Assembly (NCBI GenBank): GCA_963834305.1
Contig: CAWIAX010000003.1
Span: forward strand, 838,816-902,815
DNA length: 64,000 nucleotides
Direction: 5' to 3'
Origin: an uncultured Acidobacteriota bacterium
GTDB lineage: Bacteria; Acidobacteriota; Vicinamibacteria; Vicinamibacterales; 2-12-FULL-66-21
The first letter of the stretch is position 1, and the number at the start of each line of letters is the position of its first letter. This document shows, in pieces, positions 43,012 through 51,399 of this stretch. The translations under genes were made by a program, and so were the position numbers. Under the pieces are notes generated by a model that saw nothing but the letters and a program-made list of their open reading frames with translations, did not search any database and was not told the origin of the DNA.

Positions 43012-43323
43012 ATGCAGAAGAAGTACAACCCGCTCACAGTGTTCCTGCTCGCGATCACGCTCATCGCTCCGCTCGTGCTCGCGGGATGTGGCAAGACCGT
43101 CGGCGAAACGATCGACGATGCGACGATCACGACCCGCGTGAAGACGTCGCTGCTGAACGACCCCGATATCGGTGGCATGCGCATCGACGTGGACACGTTC
43201 AAGGGAGTCGTCACGCTGTCCGGCCGTGTGAGGAGCAAGGACGAGGAAGCGAAGGCTCTTGCCGTTGCCCGGAAGATCAGCGGCGTCGCCGAAGTGAAGT
43301 CGACGCTGCAGATCGAACCCTGA
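43012..43323 (+). CDS. BON-domain lipoprotein (OsmY-like)
   Basis: 103 aa. Lipobox LVLAGCG. BON pattern DDATITTRVKTSLLNDPDIGGMRIDVDTFKGVVTLSGRVRSKDEEAKALAVARKISGVAEVKSTLQI. Confidence 0.8.
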   Translation: MQKKYNPLTVFLLAITLIAPLVLAGCGKTVGETIDDATITTRVKTSLLNDPDIGGMRIDVDTFKGVVTLSGRVRSKDEEAKALAVARKISGVAEVKSTLQIEP

Positions 43324-43380
43324 CCTCAGGCCGCTCGGTGCTCGGCCCCAGCACGATGCCCGCGCGCTCGTGCTGGGCGC

Positions 43381-44056
43381 CTACCACTCTTCTATCCTGA
43401 TCCGCCGCCGCTCGATCCCGAGATCGAGCAGCATGCGCGGCACCTCGTCCACCATCGCGGCCGGCCCGCACACGAAGCACAGCGTCTCCGGAGTTTCGAT
43501 CAACGGCGCCAGCCGGGCCGGCGTGATGCGCCCCTGTTCGCCGCGCCACCCGTCCGCCTCGCGCGTCGCGGTCAGCGCCAGTTCGCAGCCGCCCCTCCCG
43601 CGCGTAGCGCCGCAGCTCGGCCAGGTAGGCGAAGTCGCGCGGCGTGCGGGCGCTGTAGAGGAGATGGAGACGGCCGCGCTGCCCGGCCTGGTAGGCGTGG
43701 CAGATCATCGAGCGCAGCGGCGCGATCCCGGTGCCCCCCGCCACGAACAGGAAGTGGCGCTCTTCCGGCCGCGGCGGAAAGACGAACCCGCCGACCGGCC
43801 CCTCGACCACCAGCCGGGAGCCCCGGCGCAGCGCCGCGAGGTGCGCACCCCAGGCGTCCGGCTCCACCTTCAGCAGGAACTCGAGCCACCCGTGCGCCTC
43901 GGTCTCTTCCGGGGCCGAGGCGATCGAATAGGGATACCGCGCGGGGTCACCGGGGGCGCCGAGCAGCGCCGCCTGTCCGGCAGTGTAAGGGAACCTGGCT
44001 CCCTCGAGGGCGAGCCGGACGATCCGCGTCGCAGGCGTCGCGCGCCGGATGCTCAC
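43381..44056 (-). pseudogene. Ferredoxin-NADP reductase-like FAD/NAD(P)-binding oxidoreductase, one frame switch
   Basis: GTG 44056. FAD motif RYPYSIAS and NAD motif FLFVAGGTGIAPLRSM. After about 43585-43590 my translation in another frame gives LALTATREADGWRGEQGRITPARLAPLIETPETLCFVCGPAAMVDEVPRMLLDLGIERRRIRIEEW*, ending at TAG (43381-43383). Confidence 0.75.
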
Positions 44057-44059
44057 GAC

Positions 44060-44240
44060 GGGGAGGGAGAAAGAGGTCAGGGGGTTCAGAGGTTCAAGGT
44101 GCAGGGTTCAGGGTTCTGGGTTCACGGTTCAGGGTTCACCGTTCACCCTCCCGTTCAAGGTTCATTATCACGGACATCGCACCAAGAACCCTGCACCTTG
44201 AACCCGAACCTTGCACCCTGCACCCTGCACCCTGAACCTT
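44060..44240. repeat. Inverted pair of tandem heptanucleotide arrays (GGGTTCA/GGGTGCA units and their complement)
   Basis: The head is GGGGAGGGAGAAAGAGG (44060-44076). About 9 units follow: GGGTTCA AGGTTCA AGGTGCA GGGTTCA GGGTTCT GGGTTCA CGGTTCA GGGTTCA CCGTTCA (44082-44145). After a spacer of about 39 nt come about 8 complementary units: GAACCC TGCACCT TGAACCC GAACCT TGCACCC TGCACCC TGCACCC TGAACCT (44185-44239). The last unit abuts the stop codon of the upstream minus-strand gene. Confidence 0.85.
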
Positions 44241-46741
44241 CAGAGAATCCCCGCGGCGGCCCGCTGGATGTCGCTCTCGGTCAGCTCGCGTTGTGATGAG
44301 GCGGGGGCGGCCAGCTCGGGTGACGGGGCGCTGCGGCCGCCGGTCCGGCCGGAGCGGCGTTTGCGGTTGGCCTTGTCCTGGTACATCCGGTTGTCGGCGG
44401 TGGCCAGCAGGGCCTCGTAGGTGTCGCCGTCCTGGGGGAACACGGCGGTGCCGAGGCTGATGCCGAGGGGCAGGCGCTTGCCGGGGCGCCCCTCGAAGTA
44501 GACCTCGTCCACTGCCTGCTGCAGCTCGAGCCGCTTCTGCTCGGCTTCGTCGGCGCCGCAGCCGGACAGCACCACGATGAACTCGTCGCCGGCGTAGCGG
44601 ACGCAGATGTCGTAGGGGCGGATGCCGGCGCGCAGGACCCGTGCGATCTCGACGAGCGCGCGGTCGCCGACGTGGTGGCCGTGGTTGTCGTTGATCTCCT
44701 TGAAGTGGTCGAGGTCCATGACCATCAGCGAGAGCTCGCCTTTGAGGCGCTCGGCGCGCGCCAGCTCGCGCGACAGGTGCATGAACATGAAGCGCGTGTT
44801 CGGCAGCCCGGTCAGCGTGTCGGTGAGCGAGTCCTCCTGCGTCTGCTCGAACAGCATCGAGTTGTTGATGACCGCGGCCGCCTGCTCCGACACCCGGTCG
44901 AGCAGCCGGCGGTGATCGTCGCGGTAGAACGCGGCGTCGACGTGATAGACCGACAGCGTGCCGATGAAGCGGTCGTTGAACATCAGCGGGCAGACGAGCG
45001 CCGACTGCAGGTTGGTCGTGGCCGACATGCCGGTGGCCTCGAAGTCGGCGCTGGGCCGGGCGTTGACGAGCGGCCGGCGGTTCCGCGCCACCCACCCCGT
45101 GAGTCCCTCGCCCGAGCGCACGGTGACGCGGTTGATCAGCTCGGCGTCGGTGCCGGTCGCGAAGCGGCAGCGCAGCATCTCGGTCTCCTCGTCGAAGAGG
45201 AACAGCGCCGCGCAGGAGAACGGCACCAGGTTGCTCAGCTTCGCCGAGATCAGCGCCATCGTGTCCGAGATGCCGAGGCTGGTGCCCATCGCCTGCGCGA
45301 TCTCGTAGAGCGCGTAGATTTCGCGGTGCGCCAGCGCGATGTCGTCGAAGACGTTCTTCTTGCTCGGCTCCGGCGTCAGCCCGGTCGCCGGCTGCCCGCG
45401 CTCGGGCTGCGCGGCCGGCTCCGGCTTCCGCATCGCCTGCTCCAGCCTGGTGGCTTCCTCCTGCAGCCCCGGGATCAGCTCGACGAACTTGGCGACCACG
45501 GTCGGGTCCAGTCCCTTGCCGGCCTCCTGCTGCAGCAGGCCGATGGCGGCGTCGAAGCCCATCGCCTTGTGGTAGGGACGCTCCGCCATCAGCGCGTCGA
45601 AGTAGTCCACGACCGACAGGATGCGCGCCCCGAGCGGAATGTCGTTGGCCTTCAGGCCGGACGGATACCCCTTGCCATCCCACCGCTCGTGGTGGCTGAG
45701 GATGAGCGGCGCCACCGGATAGGGGAAGGGGACCGAGCTGACGATGTCGGCGCCCACCTTGGGATGGGCGCGGATCTTCTGGAACTCCTCCGGCGTCAGC
45801 GGTCCGGGCTTCGACAGGATGTGCTCGGGCACGGCAAGCTTGCCGATGTCGTGCAGCAGGGCCGCGGTCTTCACGCCCTGGATCTCGTTGTCGTTCATCC
45901 CCAGCGCGCCCGCCACCGCCGTCGCGTACATCTGGACGCGGCGGATGTGCGACTGGGACGTCTGGTCCTTGGCGTCGATCGCCAGCGCCAGCGCCTCGAT
46001 CGTCGCCAGGTGCAGGTCCGCCATCTCCCGCACGTGCCGCTGCTCGTCGTCGATGCGGCCGAGGTAGACCTTGTAGGTGCGGTAGGTCAGGTAGAGCGGC
46101 GCGGTGAGGAGCACGGCCAGCCAGTGCGCGTGGTCCACCACCATCCAGGCGGACACCGCCGCGACGCCGGCGCCGACGAAGTAGCTCGGCGCGCTCCACA
46201 GGAAGTTCTCGTTCCACACCCGCAGCACCGACTGCCGCGTGGACAGCGCGATCGCCGTGGCAATGGTCAGCGTGTTGATGACGAAGTAGGCGGTGGCGGC
46301 GCCGACCAGCGGCTGCGCAATCCTGTGCCAGTCGAACGTGCCCGGCACGCCGCCGAGCAGGATGTAGATGTGGCCGGCCGCCTGCACGGTCACGATCAGG
46401 CACGCCATGCTGAACAGCGTGCGATGGATCGGGTTCCGCTCCTTGATCCGGAACGTGCACTGGCTGTACGCGCTCGCCGCTGCCACCACCATCGTCTCGT
46501 TGGGGCCGAGGAGGAGGAGCGAGGCGAAGTCCACGGCGTACGAGACGGACATCGTCGACCCGCTGCGGACGAGCGGCAGGTTGACCTTGAACACCGAGGT
46601 GATCGAGGACAGCGAGAGCAGGAGCAGGAACAGCCACGGCGTGCCGAAGGTCTCGAGCGGAAAAAAGACGACGAGCAGGATGGCGCCGAGCGCGATCGCC
46701 CCGCCGACGTAGAGCCGCGCCGCAAGCGGCAGGCTGGTCAT
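44240..46741 (-). CDS. Polytopic membrane signalling protein: N-terminal multi-TM domain + HD-GYP phosphodiesterase + GAF + GGDEF-type (AGDEF) diguanylate cyclase domain
   Basis: ATG 46741 overlaps the S8 gene stop (ATGA). About 7-8 TM helices. HD-GYP motifs LLHDIGKLAVPEHIL and HHERWDGKGYPSGL. A GAF-like middle region. GGDEF domain with MDLDHFKEINDNHGHHVGD and RYAGDEFIVVL. The protein is 833 aa and intact. Confidence 0.9.
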   Translation of the reverse strand: MTSLPLAARLYVGGAIALGAILLVVFFPLETFGTPWLFLLLLSLSSITSVFKVNLPLVRSGSTMSVSYAVDFASLLLLGPNETMVVAAASAYSQCTFRIKERNPIHRTLFSMACLIVTVQAAGHIYILLGGVPGTFDWHRIAQPLVGAATAYFVINTLTIATAIALSTRQSVLRVWNENFLWSAPSYFVGAGVAAVSAWMVVDHAHWLAVLLTAPLYLTYRTYKVYLGRIDDEQRHVREMADLHLATIEALALAIDAKDQTSQSHIRRVQMYATAVAGALGMNDNEIQGVKTAALLHDIGKLAVPEHILSKPGPLTPEEFQKIRAHPKVGADIVSSVPFPYPVAPLILSHHERWDGKGYPSGLKANDIPLGARILSVVDYFDALMAERPYHKAMGFDAAIGLLQQEAGKGLDPTVVAKFVELIPGLQEEATRLEQAMRKPEPAAQPERGQPATGLTPEPSKKNVFDDIALAHREIYALYEIAQAMGTSLGISDTMALISAKLSNLVPFSCAALFLFDEETEMLRCRFATGTDAELINRVTVRSGEGLTGWVARNRRPLVNARPSADFEATGMSATTNLQSALVCPLMFNDRFIGTLSVYHVDAAFYRDDHRRLLDRVSEQAAAVINNSMLFEQTQEDSLTDTLTGLPNTRFMFMHLSRELARAERLKGELSLMVMDLDHFKEINDNHGHHVGDRALVEIARVLRAGIRPYDICVRYAGDEFIVVLSGCGADEAEQKRLELQQAVDEVYFEGRPGKRLPLGISLGTAVFPQDGDTYEALLATADNRMYQDKANRKRRSGRTGGRSAPSPELAAPASSQRELTESDIQRAAAGIL

Positions 46742-48087
46742 GGCTGGACCTCGGCGCCGGCCGACTGGGCGAGCAGGATCGCGCCGCGTGCGTCCAGGAA
46801 GCCGGCGCCCTGTGCGCTCGAGCCGTACCGCGCGTCGGCGACGGCTGTGGCGCGCAGGATCGCCTTGACGGCGTCGGGATCCAGCCCGGGGTTCGCCTCG
46901 AGCATCAGCGCCACGGTGCCGGCGACGACCGGCGCGGCCATGCTCGTGCCGCTGAGGCTCAGGTAAGGCTCGACCGCCGTGGCCGCCGTGCCCCACCGCC
47001 TCGCGGACGGCCGCGTGACGAACAGCGTACTGCCGGCATCGGCAAGCGACTCGATACCGACGCCGGGCGCCACGAGATCGGGCTTGGCCGCCCGGTCGAT
47101 GGCGCTGGGCCCGCGCGAGCTGAACGGCGCGATGGTGTCGTCGCCGCGTTCGACCGTCCCGTTGTGGTTCGATGCGCCGACGGTCAGGACCCACGGCGCG
47201 TTGCCGGGCGCCGTGATGCCGCCGCCGCCCGCCTCCGGGCGTGGGCGCCCCAGGTTGCCGGCCGCCGTGACGACTACGATGCCGGCGTCGGCGGCGCGAA
47301 GGGCGGCAAGCGTCAGCGGGTCGGTCCAGTAGGATTCGGAAACGGCCGCCGCGACCGACAGGTTGATCACGCGGATGTTGAAGGATGCCCGCCGGTCGAT
47401 CGCATAGTCGATCGCCGCGATCGCATCGCTGATGTAGCCCTCGCCCCGCGCATCGAGCGCCCGCAGGACGACGAGGTGGGCGCCGGGCGCGATGCCCCGC
47501 CGCTCCCCGCCCGAGTCGTGGCCGTTGCCCGCGATGATGCCCGCCACGTGCGTGCCGTGGCCGTAGCCATCGTGCGGCGCCGCGGCCGCCTCGACGAAAT
47601 CCGCGAAATGCACGACCTGGTTGCCGCCGAGGTCGTCGTGGGCCCGGGTCACGCCGGAGTCGATGATGGCGACGCCGATGCCGGTCCCGTCGAAGCCCAG
47701 GTTCTCCGTCACCCAGCGGGCGCCGATCGCCGCCGCGGTGCGGTCGAGCGCGCCGCGCAGCGGCCGGTCCACGGTGACGGCCTCGACGTCACGCCGTCCC
47801 GACAGCGCGGCCAGGTCGCTCTGCGCGACCTCCGCCACCACCGCCCGGCCGCCGGCCAGCCGCCGGCCTGTCCGGCCGCCCGTCGCGCTGATGGCGCGTT
47901 CGACAGCTGCGGCGTTGGTCGTCCGGACGATGACGCGCACCCATCCGCCGGGCGCCCGTGGTCCCGTCGGCGCCGCGAGCGCCGGCTCCGGCGCCGCCGC
48001 GCGGACGTGCGCCTGCCGGCCCGATGCAGGTGGGAGCACCAGGGTCAGGAGCAACGCGGCGAGCACGAAAGGCGCGGATCTGGCCAT
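46738..48087 (-). CDS. Secreted S8 (subtilisin-family) serine peptidase
   Basis: ATG 48087 gives the signal peptide MARSAPFVLAALLLTLVLPPASG. Catalytic triad contexts: VAIIDSGV (D), HGTHVAGIIAG (H), LSGTSMAAPVVAG (S). Confidence 0.85.
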   Translation of the reverse strand: MARSAPFVLAALLLTLVLPPASGRQAHVRAAAPEPALAAPTGPRAPGGWVRVIVRTTNAAAVERAISATGGRTGRRLAGGRAVVAEVAQSDLAALSGRRDVEAVTVDRPLRGALDRTAAAIGARWVTENLGFDGTGIGVAIIDSGVTRAHDDLGGNQVVHFADFVEAAAAPHDGYGHGTHVAGIIAGNGHDSGGERRGIAPGAHLVVLRALDARGEGYISDAIAAIDYAIDRRASFNIRVINLSVAAAVSESYWTDPLTLAALRAADAGIVVVTAAGNLGRPRPEAGGGGITAPGNAPWVLTVGASNHNGTVERGDDTIAPFSSRGPSAIDRAAKPDLVAPGVGIESLADAGSTLFVTRPSARRWGTAATAVEPYLSLSGTSMAAPVVAGTVALMLEANPGLDPDAVKAILRATAVADARYGSSAQGAGFLDARGAILLAQSAGAEVQP

Positions 48088-48112
48088 AGGCGGATCGGGA
48101 CACCGCTCACCA

Positions 48113-48129
48113 TGCAATTCGGCCGCCCG
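48113..48129 (-). promoter_or_regulatory. Candidate sigma54 (-24/-12) promoter upstream of the S8 peptidase gene
   Basis: The minus strand reads GGGCGGCCGAATTGCA: GG-N10-GC spacing with a perfect -12 TTGCA and a partial -24 (GGGCGG versus TGGCAC). It lies about 25-40 nt upstream of ATG 48087 and directly downstream of a sigma54 activator gene. The match is weak. Confidence 0.3.
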
Positions 48130-48273
48130 TCTTTCGAAGTGAGCCGAGGGGCGTAAGTGGCTGGTCTTTCTGCGCTTACGCAGGTTGGCGACCGTTCCGG
48201 GCGCGCACAATTCTGACATCGAATGTCCCGTTCTGGAACAGTCAACGTGCAAAAAGACGTCAGGCGTGCGCGG

Positions 48274-49608
48274 CTAGGTGGTGGCTTTCGCTGGCGTGAC
48301 GCTGGCGTCGAGGCCGTATTCGACGATCTTGCGGTAGAGAGTCCCGCGGCTGATCTCGAGGACCGCGGCCGCCTGCTTCTTGTTCCAGTTCACGCTCTCG
48401 AGCACCCGGATGATGTGCCCGCGTTCCGCTTCCGCGAGGCTCGGCAGGCGGCCGCCGGCGGCTTCGACGGGGGCCTCGCTGGCGTGCAGGAACTCGATGT
48501 CGCCGGGGCGGATCACGCGGCCCGGCGACGACAGCGCCGCGCGCGACACCGTGCTCTCGAGCTCGCGGATGTTCCCCGGCCAGTGATATTGCAGCATCAG
48601 GTCCATCCCCTCTTTCGAGAAGGACTTGCCGTCGAGGGCGAGACCGTTGCCGGCGCAGTAGCGGGCCAGGAAGCGCCCGGCGAGCACCGGAATGTCCGTC
48701 GCCCGTTCGCGCAGCGAGGGCAGGCGGATGGAGAAGGCATTGACCCGGTAATACAGGTCCTCGCGGAAGCGCGAATCCCGCACGAACTGGTCGAGCGGCC
48801 GGTTCGTCGCGGAGATGAGCCTGAAGTTGACGTCGATCGGCGTGTTGCCGCCGAGGCGCTCGAAGCGGCGCTCCTCGAGCACCCGCAGGAGCTTGGCCTG
48901 CGCCACGATCGACATGTCGCCGATCTCGTCGAGGAAGAGCGTGCCGTTGTTCGCCAGCTCCAGCCGCCCCGGCTTGCGGTCGTAGGCGCCGGTGAAGGCC
49001 CCTTTCTCGTAGCCGAAGATTTCCGACTCGAACAGCGTATCGGGCAGCGCCGCGCAGTTCACCGCCTGGAACTTGTTGGTGCCGCGCCGGCTCAGCTCGT
49101 GGATCATCCGCGCCACGACCTCCTTGCCGGACCCGGTCGGGCCGAGGATGAGGACCGAGATATCCGACTTGGCCGCCGTGCGGATCCATTCGAAGATGAC
49201 CAGCATCTTCTCGTCGCGGCCGATCATTTCGCGGAAGCGCTGGACGGCGGGGGAGCGGTCCTCGTGGCTGACCGTGGCGCGCCGTTCGAGGAACTGGTCG
49301 AGCAGGTCGCGCACGAGCTCGCTGTCGGGCTGGGCGTGGGCGTAGCGCGGGGTGCCGGGCCCCGCGACCCGGTGGGCCAGGCCGAATCCGGCGAGCTCCC
49401 GAACGCAGTTCTCGACGTCGAGCCGCATCCGGCCGAACGTCTGCATCAGCGCCTCGATCTCGAAGGACTCGTCCGGCCTGGCGCACAGGAAGCGGAGCAG
49501 CGCCGCGCGCAGCGGCGACTGCACGAGCGCCTGGAAGCGGGACTCCACTTCCGGCCCGTCAATCCGGCGGCCGCTCACGATCACGTTCTCGACATTGGTC
49601 GGCATCAT
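48274..49608 (-). CDS. Sigma54-dependent transcriptional activator (bacterial enhancer-binding protein) without receiver domain
   Basis: ATG 49608 overlaps the stop of the upstream PH gene (ATGA). AAA+ core: Walker A LGPTGSGKEVVA, GAFTGA loop (YEKGAFTGAY), Walker B LFLDEIGDM, and WPGNIRELES. C-terminal Fis-type HTH AAAVLEISRGTLYRKI. The N-terminal about 125 aa is not a REC domain. Confidence 0.9.
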   Translation of the reverse strand: MMPTNVENVIVSGRRIDGPEVESRFQALVQSPLRAALLRFLCARPDESFEIEALMQTFGRMRLDVENCVRELAGFGLAHRVAGPGTPRYAHAQPDSELVRDLLDQFLERRATVSHEDRSPAVQRFREMIGRDEKMLVIFEWIRTAAKSDISVLILGPTGSGKEVVARMIHELSRRGTNKFQAVNCAALPDTLFESEIFGYEKGAFTGAYDRKPGRLELANNGTLFLDEIGDMSIVAQAKLLRVLEERRFERLGGNTPIDVNFRLISATNRPLDQFVRDSRFREDLYYRVNAFSIRLPSLRERATDIPVLAGRFLARYCAGNGLALDGKSFSKEGMDLMLQYHWPGNIRELESTVSRAALSSPGRVIRPGDIEFLHASEAPVEAAGGRLPSLAEAERGHIIRVLESVNWNKKQAAAVLEISRGTLYRKIVEYGLDASVTPAKATT

Positions 49609-50036
49609 TGTGTCCGCTGTGTCCGCGACAGATGGTTCGACTGGTATTGCTCGATGATCTGCTTCATCGCGATCGCATCCCGTTTCCGGTGCCCGTGGCA
49701 GCGCACCGGGCTCGTTCCGCCGCTGCTCTCGATGAGGACGTCGGCAAAGAACAGGTTGCGGTCGATCAGCACCGAGGCCACGTGCGAGATGTGCATCGAG
49801 TGCTCCCGCCCGCCGAACAGCTCGGGCGTGTAATGCACGACCGCCGACGGCGTGACCGACACCTGCGTCGGAAACCACAGGTTGCCGCGGCTCAGCCGGC
49901 TGGCGCGAAACACGTGCTGGCCCGGCAGGAGGCGGCCCTTCCGCCAGAAGAAGAGCACCAGTCCGGCCAGGACCGCGAGCGCGGCCGCAACGAGCCACAC
50001 TGCACCGCCGCCGAAGGCGCTGCCGGGATCGGTCAT
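49605..50036 (-). CDS. Membrane-anchored bacterial PH-domain protein (YdbS/YdbT-like)
   Basis: 143 aa. TM helix VWLVAAALAVLAGLVLFFW, then FRASRLSRGNLWFPTQVSVTPSAVVHYTPELFGGREHSMHISHVASVLIDRNLFFADVLIESSGG, the bPH pattern by eye. Confidence 0.7.
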   Translation of the reverse strand: MTDPGSAFGGGAVWLVAAALAVLAGLVLFFWRKGRLLPGQHVFRASRLSRGNLWFPTQVSVTPSAVVHYTPELFGGREHSMHISHVASVLIDRNLFFADVLIESSGGTSPVRCHGHRKRDAIAMKQIIEQYQSNHLSRTQRTQ

Positions 50037-50183
50037 AACTTGGAATTACTGCTGGGGGGGCACATCAGAGTCGCCCGATCCTGCACATTTGTCAAGGCCT
50101 TTCGCCCGCCGCCCCGGGGCCGTCCGCGGGGACTGGTGCTAAGCTAACCCCTCTGCCTGTTCACCAAACGGAGGGCTGCATCA

Positions 50184-51341: not shown

Positions 51342-51399
51342 GGGAGGGGAAAGGGCTAAGGGCGAAGGGCTAAGGGCGAAGGGCGAAGGGCGAAGTGGG
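51341..51399. repeat. Tandem heptanucleotide array (AAGGGCK)x7 with GGGGAGGGGAAAG head
   Basis: GGGGAGGGGA then AAGGGCT AAGGGCG AAGGGCT AAGGGCG AAGGGCG AAGGGCG AAGTGGG. The array fills the gap between the DHS-like stop (51341) and the GTG at 51395 of the next ORF. Confidence 0.85.

Follow-up and report, generated by a model that had tools for sequence, protein, structure and literature searches.

We analysed a 64,000-nucleotide stretch of contig CAWIAX010000003.1 (hereafter the window) from an uncultured bacterium of the order Vicinamibacterales (Acidobacteriota), in which four neighbouring genes on one strand encode a small membrane protein with a PH-like domain, a sigma-54 enhancer-binding protein (EBP), a secreted subtilase of family S8, and a membrane protein combining HD-GYP, GAF and GGDEF domains (Table 1). 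A sequence-only reading of this DNA had described the four genes as co-directional, with ATGA stop/start overlaps joining the PH-like gene to the EBP gene (49605-49608) and the S8 gene to the HD-GYP gene (46738-46741), and with a 186-nt gap between the EBP and S8 genes that carries a GG-N10-GC element with a TTGCA box. A check of the open reading frames (ORFs) and of the sequence itself bore out all of these points. An alternative in-frame ATG for the EBP lies at 49605, and if it is used the overlap with the PH-like gene shrinks from 4 nt to 1 nt. The G+C content of the window is about 70%, and no rpoN gene lies within its 64 kb.

The comparison set comprised about 150 Vicinamibacterales loci overall. 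Species-representative genomes were scanned with a narrow alignment of the PH-like protein, which matched 257 genomes; the best 80 of these 257, nearly all of them labelled Acidobacteriota or Vicinamibacterales, were compared (the genome loci below), with gene order mapped by tblastn using the window proteins. Further loci came from metagenomes, 73 of them located through the N-terminal domain of the EBP. One syntenic block was found in all 80 genome loci: a deoxyhypusine-synthase-like (DS) gene on the opposite strand to the PH-like gene; the PH-like and EBP genes, the S8 gene where present, and the HD-GYP/GAF/GGDEF gene; and then FNR-like, BON and FabI genes. The gene order in relatives, which the sequence-only reading had named as something to check, is kept across the order Vicinamibacterales.

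The gap between the EBP and S8 genes carries a conserved promoter. In the window, the element has GG and GC doublets 10 nt apart and a TTGCA-type -12 box, with a degenerate -24 box that reads GGCGG where the family has GGCAG. The orthologous intergenic regions share an invariant GGCA(G/A)-N6-TTGCA set between variable flanks, and the promoter score cut-off is reached in 45 of 70 of them, against 1.6 expected from shuffled sequences. The spacing from promoter to start codon is constant among close relatives, and that of the window is the same as in its closest relative. By orthology, the -24/-12 element that had been noticed in this gap is thus a conserved sigma-54 promoter. A scan of the region for sigma-70 and terminator consensus sequences returned nothing above chance.

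Upstream of this promoter lies a palindromic element that had escaped the earlier reading and is newly recognised here. Of 58 orthologous intergenic regions, 40 have a perfect TGT-N11-ACA (1.9 expected), typically with GAAAC in the middle, and in most loci the centre of the palindrome falls 104-120 nt upstream of the -24 box. Under a matrix derived from the remaining loci, the window copy scores 22.9 bits and the next best site in the 64 kb only 13.1, which makes it unique in the window. This palindrome is probably the binding site of the EBP. Also seen in many loci, some 27-30 nt upstream of the -24 box, is an A/T-rich patch of loose conservation that ends in TTA(C/G); it fits the IHF consensus in a few of them, is weak in the window, and is not relied on here. 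An enhancer, a possible bend site and a -24/-12 element would together make up the textbook layout of a sigma-54 promoter.

Table 1. Features of the locus, with positions counted from the first nucleotide of the window.
Feature	Position	Strand	Size	Remarks
PH-like protein gene	49605-50036	minus	143 aa	
EBP (sigma-54 enhancer-binding protein) gene	48274-49608	minus	444 aa	
S8 protease (subtilase) gene	46738-48087	minus	449 aa	
HD-GYP/GAF/GGDEF protein gene	44240-46741	minus	833 aa	
Sigma-54 -24/-12 promoter GGGCGGCCGAATTGCA	48113-48128 (GG 48126-48127, GC 48114-48115)	minus		25 nt upstream of the S8 ATG; assigned by orthology
Putative palindromic upstream activating sequence TGTTCCAGAACGGGACA (TGT-N11-ACA)	48224-48240	strand-neutral		centre 104 nt upstream of the -24 box
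Imperfect hairpin of inverted GGGT(G/T)CA heptamer arrays	44082-44240	minus	159 nt	starts right after the HD-GYP stop, may overlap it by one base
TTGACA hexamer (-35-like)	50090-50095	minus		upstream of the PH-EBP pair; in relatives a conserved GGAGCGAACGTA-type block follows it, for which the window has GGGCGACTCTGA

The EBP itself has the features of a sigma-54 activator. Pfam assigns it a Sigma54_activat domain (PF00158, 1.5e-66, residues 128-294), an AAA_lid_14 domain and a C-terminal HTH_8 domain (1.7e-12, residues 391-431); Walker A- and B-type motifs (GPTGSGKE, 156-163; LFLDEIG, 224-230) are in place, and the sigma-54 contact loop reads exactly GAFTGA at residues 203-208. The receiver domain found at the N-terminus of NtrC-class activators is absent: there is no Response_reg match anywhere in the protein, and its N-terminal 130 residues match nothing in Pfam even at E<=10. 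The AlphaFold2 model of this N-domain has a core with pLDDT >90 (residues 20-100) and a winged-helix topology, and Foldseek places residues ~18-113 with SmtB, NolR, HlyU, CadC, BigR, SqrR and CzrA (E 1.5e-4 to 1e-3, TM-score 0.5-0.6). The earlier proposals that the activator is receiver-less and that its first ~125 residues resemble a winged helix are both upheld, and the winged helix can now be typed as ArsR/SmtB-like. The likeness is one of fold, in which the order alpha1-alpha2-alpha3-alpha4-hairpin-alpha5 is shared. Unlike the ArsR/SmtB regulators, the domain has no match to the corresponding Pfam sequence families (HTH_5, HTH_20), is fused to an AAA+ sigma-54 activator, and on alignment reading contains neither the alpha-5 His/Asp/Glu set nor the alpha-3 CxC motif of the canonical metal sites. 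It carries instead a single invariant cysteine in the recognition helix, C68, which is present in all of 149 sequences, and a second cysteine, C42, is conserved in 72%. The N-domain recurs in 675 proteins, and those with a named source belong to the Vicinamibacterales. An EBP input architecture of this kind, with or without a PH-like membrane partner, is undescribed in current domain libraries.

Downstream of the promoter, the first gene encodes a protein with a Peptidase_S8 domain (PF00082, 1e-49), an intact D/H/S triad (IIDSG, HGTHVAG, GTSMAAP) and a hydrophobic Sec-type N-terminal signal (residues 1-23), which together identify a subtilase that is predicted to be secreted. The second gene encodes a polytopic protein with a MASE9-like N-terminus (the MASE9 match is weak and below cut-off), followed by HD_5 (1.3e-44), GAF_2 (7e-16) and GGDEF (5e-40) domains in Pfam and NCBIfam. 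Its HD and GYP motifs are intact (LHDIGK, 296-301; HHERWDGKGYP, 350-360), as expected of an HD-GYP phosphodiesterase, and are kept in 66-67 orthologues. The cyclase domain has AGDEF (717-721) in place of GGDEF and an RPYD I-site (708-711); AGDEF, the RxxD I-site, HD and GYP are conserved in 65-66 of about 66 orthologues, and AGDEF itself in 65 of 66. We propose that this protein makes and/or degrades cyclic di-GMP (c-di-GMP). The same AGDEF substitution occurs in two other hybrid c-di-GMP enzymes, VCA0965 of Vibrio cholerae and NbdA of Pseudomonas aeruginosa; unlike in those enzymes, AGDEF is paired here with HD-GYP rather than EAL, and with a GAF domain and a MASE9-like membrane module. Of the two, VCA0965 has kept its cyclase activity (PMC3974145), while the AGDEF domain of NbdA has been described as degenerate (bioRxiv 10.64898/2026.03.20.713172). 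Since AGDEF sites can be either active or degenerate, the direction of the change in c-di-GMP cannot be predicted.

The sequence-only reading took the S8 protease and the HD-GYP protein together as the output of the circuit. The comparison upholds this for the HD-GYP/GAF/AGDEF protein, which is the conserved target, but not for S8, which is not part of the core. The HD-GYP gene follows the EBP gene, directly or past S8, in nearly all loci that are long enough, with one clear exception (L067). The S8 gene, by contrast, occurs in about 45 of the 80 genome loci and is absent from 29, the remaining loci ending earlier; its absence thus concerns about a third of the 80 loci and roughly two in five of those long enough to show it. 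In these 29 loci, the promoter or gap leads straight from the EBP gene to the HD-GYP gene. S8 is therefore an accessory gene, and it would be the first gene of the putative sigma-54 operon in one subclade. Where S8 is present, its stop and the HD-GYP start overlap by 4 nt in 22 loci; in the others a gap of at most 79 nt separates the two, and no second promoter is seen.

At its other end, the operon runs into a large imperfect hairpin of -91.6 kcal/mol (z-score -8.2), which is built from heptamer arrays found by Tandem Repeats Finder. Of 14 GGGT(G/T)CA matches in the window, 13 fall within the hairpin, where 1.5 would be expected. The operon probably has its 3' end here, with the hairpin as terminator or stabiliser. 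Arrays of this heptamer are also seen at other intergenic positions of 9 out of 83 related loci, so that they look like a dispersed repeat family of the Vicinamibacterales, similar to repetitive extragenic palindromic (REP) elements.

The PH-like protein of the window has no match in Pfam or NCBIfam, in Pfam even at E<=10, and a PDB sequence search with the family profile gave matches at chance level only. Weak matches to bPH_2 (PF03703) appear in 13 of 33 diverse relatives, the best at 4.8e-05, and the window protein stays below the Pfam gathering score. The AlphaFold2 model (mean pLDDT 89.7) shows an N-terminal helix (7-33), a seven-stranded antiparallel sandwich and a C-terminal helix (118-142) that caps it, and Foldseek, run against the PDB, gives as its 50 best matches almost exclusively PH or PH-like domains, among them the bacterial structures 3dcx and 3hsa. 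What had been called a membrane-anchored bacterial PH-domain protein therefore does have one transmembrane helix and a PH-like fold, but it is not a member of Pfam bPH_2; the PH assignment rests on the weak matches in relatives and on the predicted fold. The protein shares with bacterial PH families (bPH_2, YdbS-YdbT, and the DUF1696 structures 3dcx and 3hsa) a transmembrane helix followed by a seven-stranded sandwich and a C-terminal helix. It differs from bPH_2 proteins, which usually have two transmembrane helices, in having a single one (~7-33), which follows a short N-terminus, and in its own family motifs, RASRLSxGNxxFPTQV and CHGH. Because a basic WRKGR segment follows the transmembrane helix, the positive-inside rule would place the PH-like domain in the cytoplasm.

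Homologues of the PH-like protein number 2606, most of them 75-83% identical and none with an assigned name, and the family falls into 374 clusters at 50% identity. Among relatives, the soluble part is about 88-90% identical. Across 141 sequences of the Vicinamibacterales clade, four residues (H82, H85, C113 and H116) never vary, and H114 is kept in 97%; these residues make up an HxxH motif (82-85) and the CHGH motif (113-116), which suggests a metal- or redox-binding site. Of 74 loci, 53 have a TTGACA hexamer upstream of the PH-EBP pair, between DS and PH, where 1.7 would be expected by chance.

On balance, we favour the reading that the locus is a lineage-specific sigma-54 regulatory module of the Vicinamibacterales. 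The genes, their domains and folds, the promoter, the enhancer and the operon structure are established by comparative conservation. In this module, the PH-like and EBP genes would be expressed together from the conserved TTGACA-containing promoter region. The EBP would then bind through its C-terminal HTH_8 domain to the TGT-N11-ACA enhancer just downstream of its own gene, oligomerise and, by hydrolysing ATP, open the sigma-54 RNA polymerase complex at the -24/-12 element ~110 nt further on. The operon thus switched on would comprise, in the window, the S8 protease and the membrane HD-GYP/GAF/AGDEF protein and would end at the large hairpin, with the c-di-GMP enzyme as the conserved output and the protease as an accessory of one subclade. 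The activity of the EBP is presumably gated through the ArsR/SmtB-like winged helix, which would stand in for a receiver domain, and the PH-like protein is a plausible modulator that might tether or inhibit the EBP, as NifL or PspA do. What we infer is that this EBP binds this enhancer, what kind of signal it answers to, and whether the PH-like protein plays a part.

Several observations weigh against such a module. The window promoter is the weakest of its family, at 11.2 bits with a matrix from the orthologous sites where the median is 20.5, and it is matched in score by four other places in the 64 kb; the window holds 232 matches to GG-N10-GCA where 250 are expected, a chance frequency. Being weak on its own score, the window promoter is credible only as an orthologous site. 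Moreover, adjacency of the genes reflects common descent in part, since the whole block from DS to FabI is syntenic in the 80 genome loci, and because this synteny spans the same evolutionary range, gene order alone is weak evidence of function. Some S8-less loci speak for the module: two within the same clade (L019, L028) keep the promoter in front of HD-GYP, and in five others (L061, L070, L074, L079, L080) a GGC-N8-TTGCA lies 22-50 nt upstream of HD-GYP. Against it, ten S8-less relatives (L042, L045, L051, L055, L057, L060, L064, L066, L073, L077) have no recognisable GG-N10-GC between the EBP stop and the HD-GYP start. A search for a sigma-54 promoter in front of HD-GYP found none of correct spacing in these ten, where the spacer has a sigma-70-like arrangement instead: TTGTAT-N17-TATGCT with an ATGAC-N6-GTCAT dyad inside it, along with strongly conserved TGTC-N5-ACTGTC and TTTGCAC. 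Sigma-54 control of HD-GYP is hence not universal, and the wiring is not uniform across the order.

About eight of these ten relatives share a conserved leader of ~100 nt with apparent stems; it is absent in L055 and L066 and largely absent in L064. An Rfam search returned nothing relevant in the window region (E<=1) or in eight related loci at gathering thresholds, this leader included. It could represent a 5' leader of a kind not yet described, located upstream of a c-di-GMP gene.

If the locus is a sigma-54 module, its input could come through the winged-helix domain itself with its invariant cysteine, through the PH-like partner, or through both. The sequence-only reading had seen in the PH-like protein the obvious candidate sensor or anti-activator of the EBP. 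Of this claim the gene adjacency stands, but there are EBP loci without a PH-like gene and a PH locus without an EBP, and we put forward a regulatory role of the PH-like protein only tentatively. In its most specific form, the protein would be a dedicated membrane-tethered sensor or anti-activator that holds the EBP inactive until a signal arrives, like NifL with NifA or PspA with PspF; this is possible but doubtful, and so is the further idea that the cytoplasmic PH domain, perhaps by way of its HxxH...CHGH cluster, binds the winged-helix or AAA+ domain of the EBP. The argument for it is mainly genomic. The PH-like gene adjoins the EBP gene in every genome locus with enough sequence and lies upstream of it in 69 of the 73 loci found through the EBP; the genes overlap in 36 of 79 junctions and are 0-40 nt apart in another 27 (63 of 79 together), and the pairing persists at 50% identity of the PH-like protein. 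To this can be added that the EBP has no classical sensor domain, that the soluble part of the PH-like protein is strongly conserved with invariant His and Cys residues, and that the EBP N-domain also has an invariant cysteine. Yet the four remaining metagenome loci have DS and EBP without a PH-like gene, and in two that extend far enough (L158, L165) S8 and HD-GYP follow as well. Conversely, a metagenome contig of 1243 nt (L170) reads DS/PH/FabI with a PH-like protein 45% identical, its slot containing no EBP, S8, HD-GYP, FNR-like or BON gene, and PH relatives of ~40% identity sit beside primase/RadC-like or unrelated genes rather than EBPs. Fused genes would have been a direct link, and in-frame ORFs running from PH into EBP without a stop are found (L010, L011, L061 and proteins P0391, P0394 and P0396, with L038 also listed among the read-through cases). 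However, they are confined to long-read metagenome-assembled genomes that are prone to indels and have frameshift-split neighbour genes, and close relatives (L012, L038) differ by indels; we therefore discounted them as a functional link. They are probably assembly or indel artefacts, and a real membrane-tethered fusion in some lineage is possible.

Those PH-less EBPs keep their N-domain, as would be expected if the EBP senses for itself through the ArsR/SmtB-like fold, either by redox or thiol modification of C68 or by binding a small ligand. The PH-like protein would then be an operon-mate with another job, for example as a membrane partner of the polytopic HD-GYP protein. Both parts of this alternative are conceivable, and we hold them with low confidence. 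The fold it invokes includes the thiol and persulfide sensors BigR, SqrR and HlyU, C68 is invariant in the sequences compared, and the PH family is broader than its association with EBPs. On the other hand, a canonical ArsR/SmtB metal site is missing, C68 is the only invariant cysteine, with C42 conserved in only 72% of the sequences, and the very tight coupling of the PH-like and EBP genes is left unexplained. It is also conceivable that the winged helix binds DNA, as a second, LevR-like DNA-binding domain for an extra operator, and that the EBP is controlled mainly by its abundance through the promoter upstream of PH. Structurally, the winged helix does come closest to DNA-binding repressors, one of them solved on DNA (NolR, 4omy), the recognition-helix region is the most conserved part (R60, R62, D64, N67, C68), and a conserved promoter block does lie upstream of PH. 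But the EBP already has a C-terminal HTH_8, which suffices in other EBPs, the putative recognition helix is not basic but acidic and hydrophobic, and between the EBP gene and the promoter only a single palindrome with strong conservation is seen, so that we regard this explanation as very unlikely.

Among described systems, the locus appears to resemble nifLA most in layout and PspF/PspA or HrpRS/HrpV in logic, although the partner proteins are not homologous. In nifLA, the anti-activator NifL is paired with the EBP NifA, whose upstream activating sequence is TGT-N10-ACA. As in that system, a partner gene lies immediately upstream of the EBP gene and is translationally coupled to it, the EBP lacks a receiver domain and may be under the control of a partner protein, and a TGT...ACA palindrome lies ~100 nt upstream of a -24/-12 promoter. 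The differences concern the parts: NifL is a PAS/histidine-kinase-like flavoprotein, whereas the partner here is a PH-like protein with a single membrane pass; the N-domain of NifA is a GAF domain and not a winged helix; the palindrome here has a spacer of N11 in place of N10; and a protease and a c-di-GMP enzyme take the place of nif genes as targets. PspF with PspA/PspB/PspC and HrpR/S with HrpV are likewise receiver-less EBPs regulated in trans by a membrane-linked negative regulator, for which the PH-like protein is the candidate here, and their output also concerns the cell envelope or exterior. The present EBP differs in having a domain at its N-terminus, the PH-like protein is related neither to PspA nor to HrpV, and the partner gene lies upstream of the EBP gene in the same operon and not in the target operon. 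The LevR-type EBPs of Firmicutes also begin with a winged helix, a DNA-binding domain that precedes the AAA+ domain; those proteins lack a C-terminal HTH_8 and carry PRD/EII domains, whereas here HTH_8 is present and PRD is not. In the literature on this system, on winged-helix EBPs and on bacterial PH proteins in regulation, we found no description of this system.

The system can be described, from its sequence, as a sigma-54/EBP-controlled operon of known type, with a well-defined cis-architecture. Vicinamibacterales are among the commonest soil Acidobacteriota, and we know of almost nothing on gene regulation in this order. The locus offers a complete and comparatively defined sigma-54 circuit, in which the activator gene, the enhancer, the promoter, the operon and the 3' hairpin are all open to direct testing, and it would link sigma-54 to c-di-GMP signalling in Acidobacteriota. 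Should the PH-like protein indeed control the EBP, this would apparently be the first signalling role assigned to a bacterial PH-like protein in such a circuit, as far as the literature found goes. The boldest form of the idea is that the PH-like protein, with its HxxH...CHGH metal- or redox-type cluster, represents a new kind of membrane-tethered anti-activator for an EBP in which an ArsR-like winged helix has taken over from the receiver domain; across the Vicinamibacterales, an abundant soil order, a cue from the envelope, from a metal or from redox state would thereby be tied to c-di-GMP turnover, and in a subclade also to a protease that is secreted. This seems to us rather unlikely.

Other features were seen around the module. 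A conserved TAGCTTAGCA(C/T)CAG block lies near the DS start (50096-50183 in the window, and in the orthologous DS-PH spacers); on the DS strand it reads TGcTAAGCT, which is extended -10-like and is probably the DS promoter. On the far side of the operon, the FNR-like (FAD/NAD-binding) ORF at 43277-44056 on the minus strand is matched over only its first ~60% by most relatives; its C-terminal part is Arg-rich and looks out of frame, and the ORF may be frameshifted or over-extended. Finally, a second heptamer array, of AAGGGCG in 6.4 copies, lies at 51345-51395, within the short gap that follows the DS gene.

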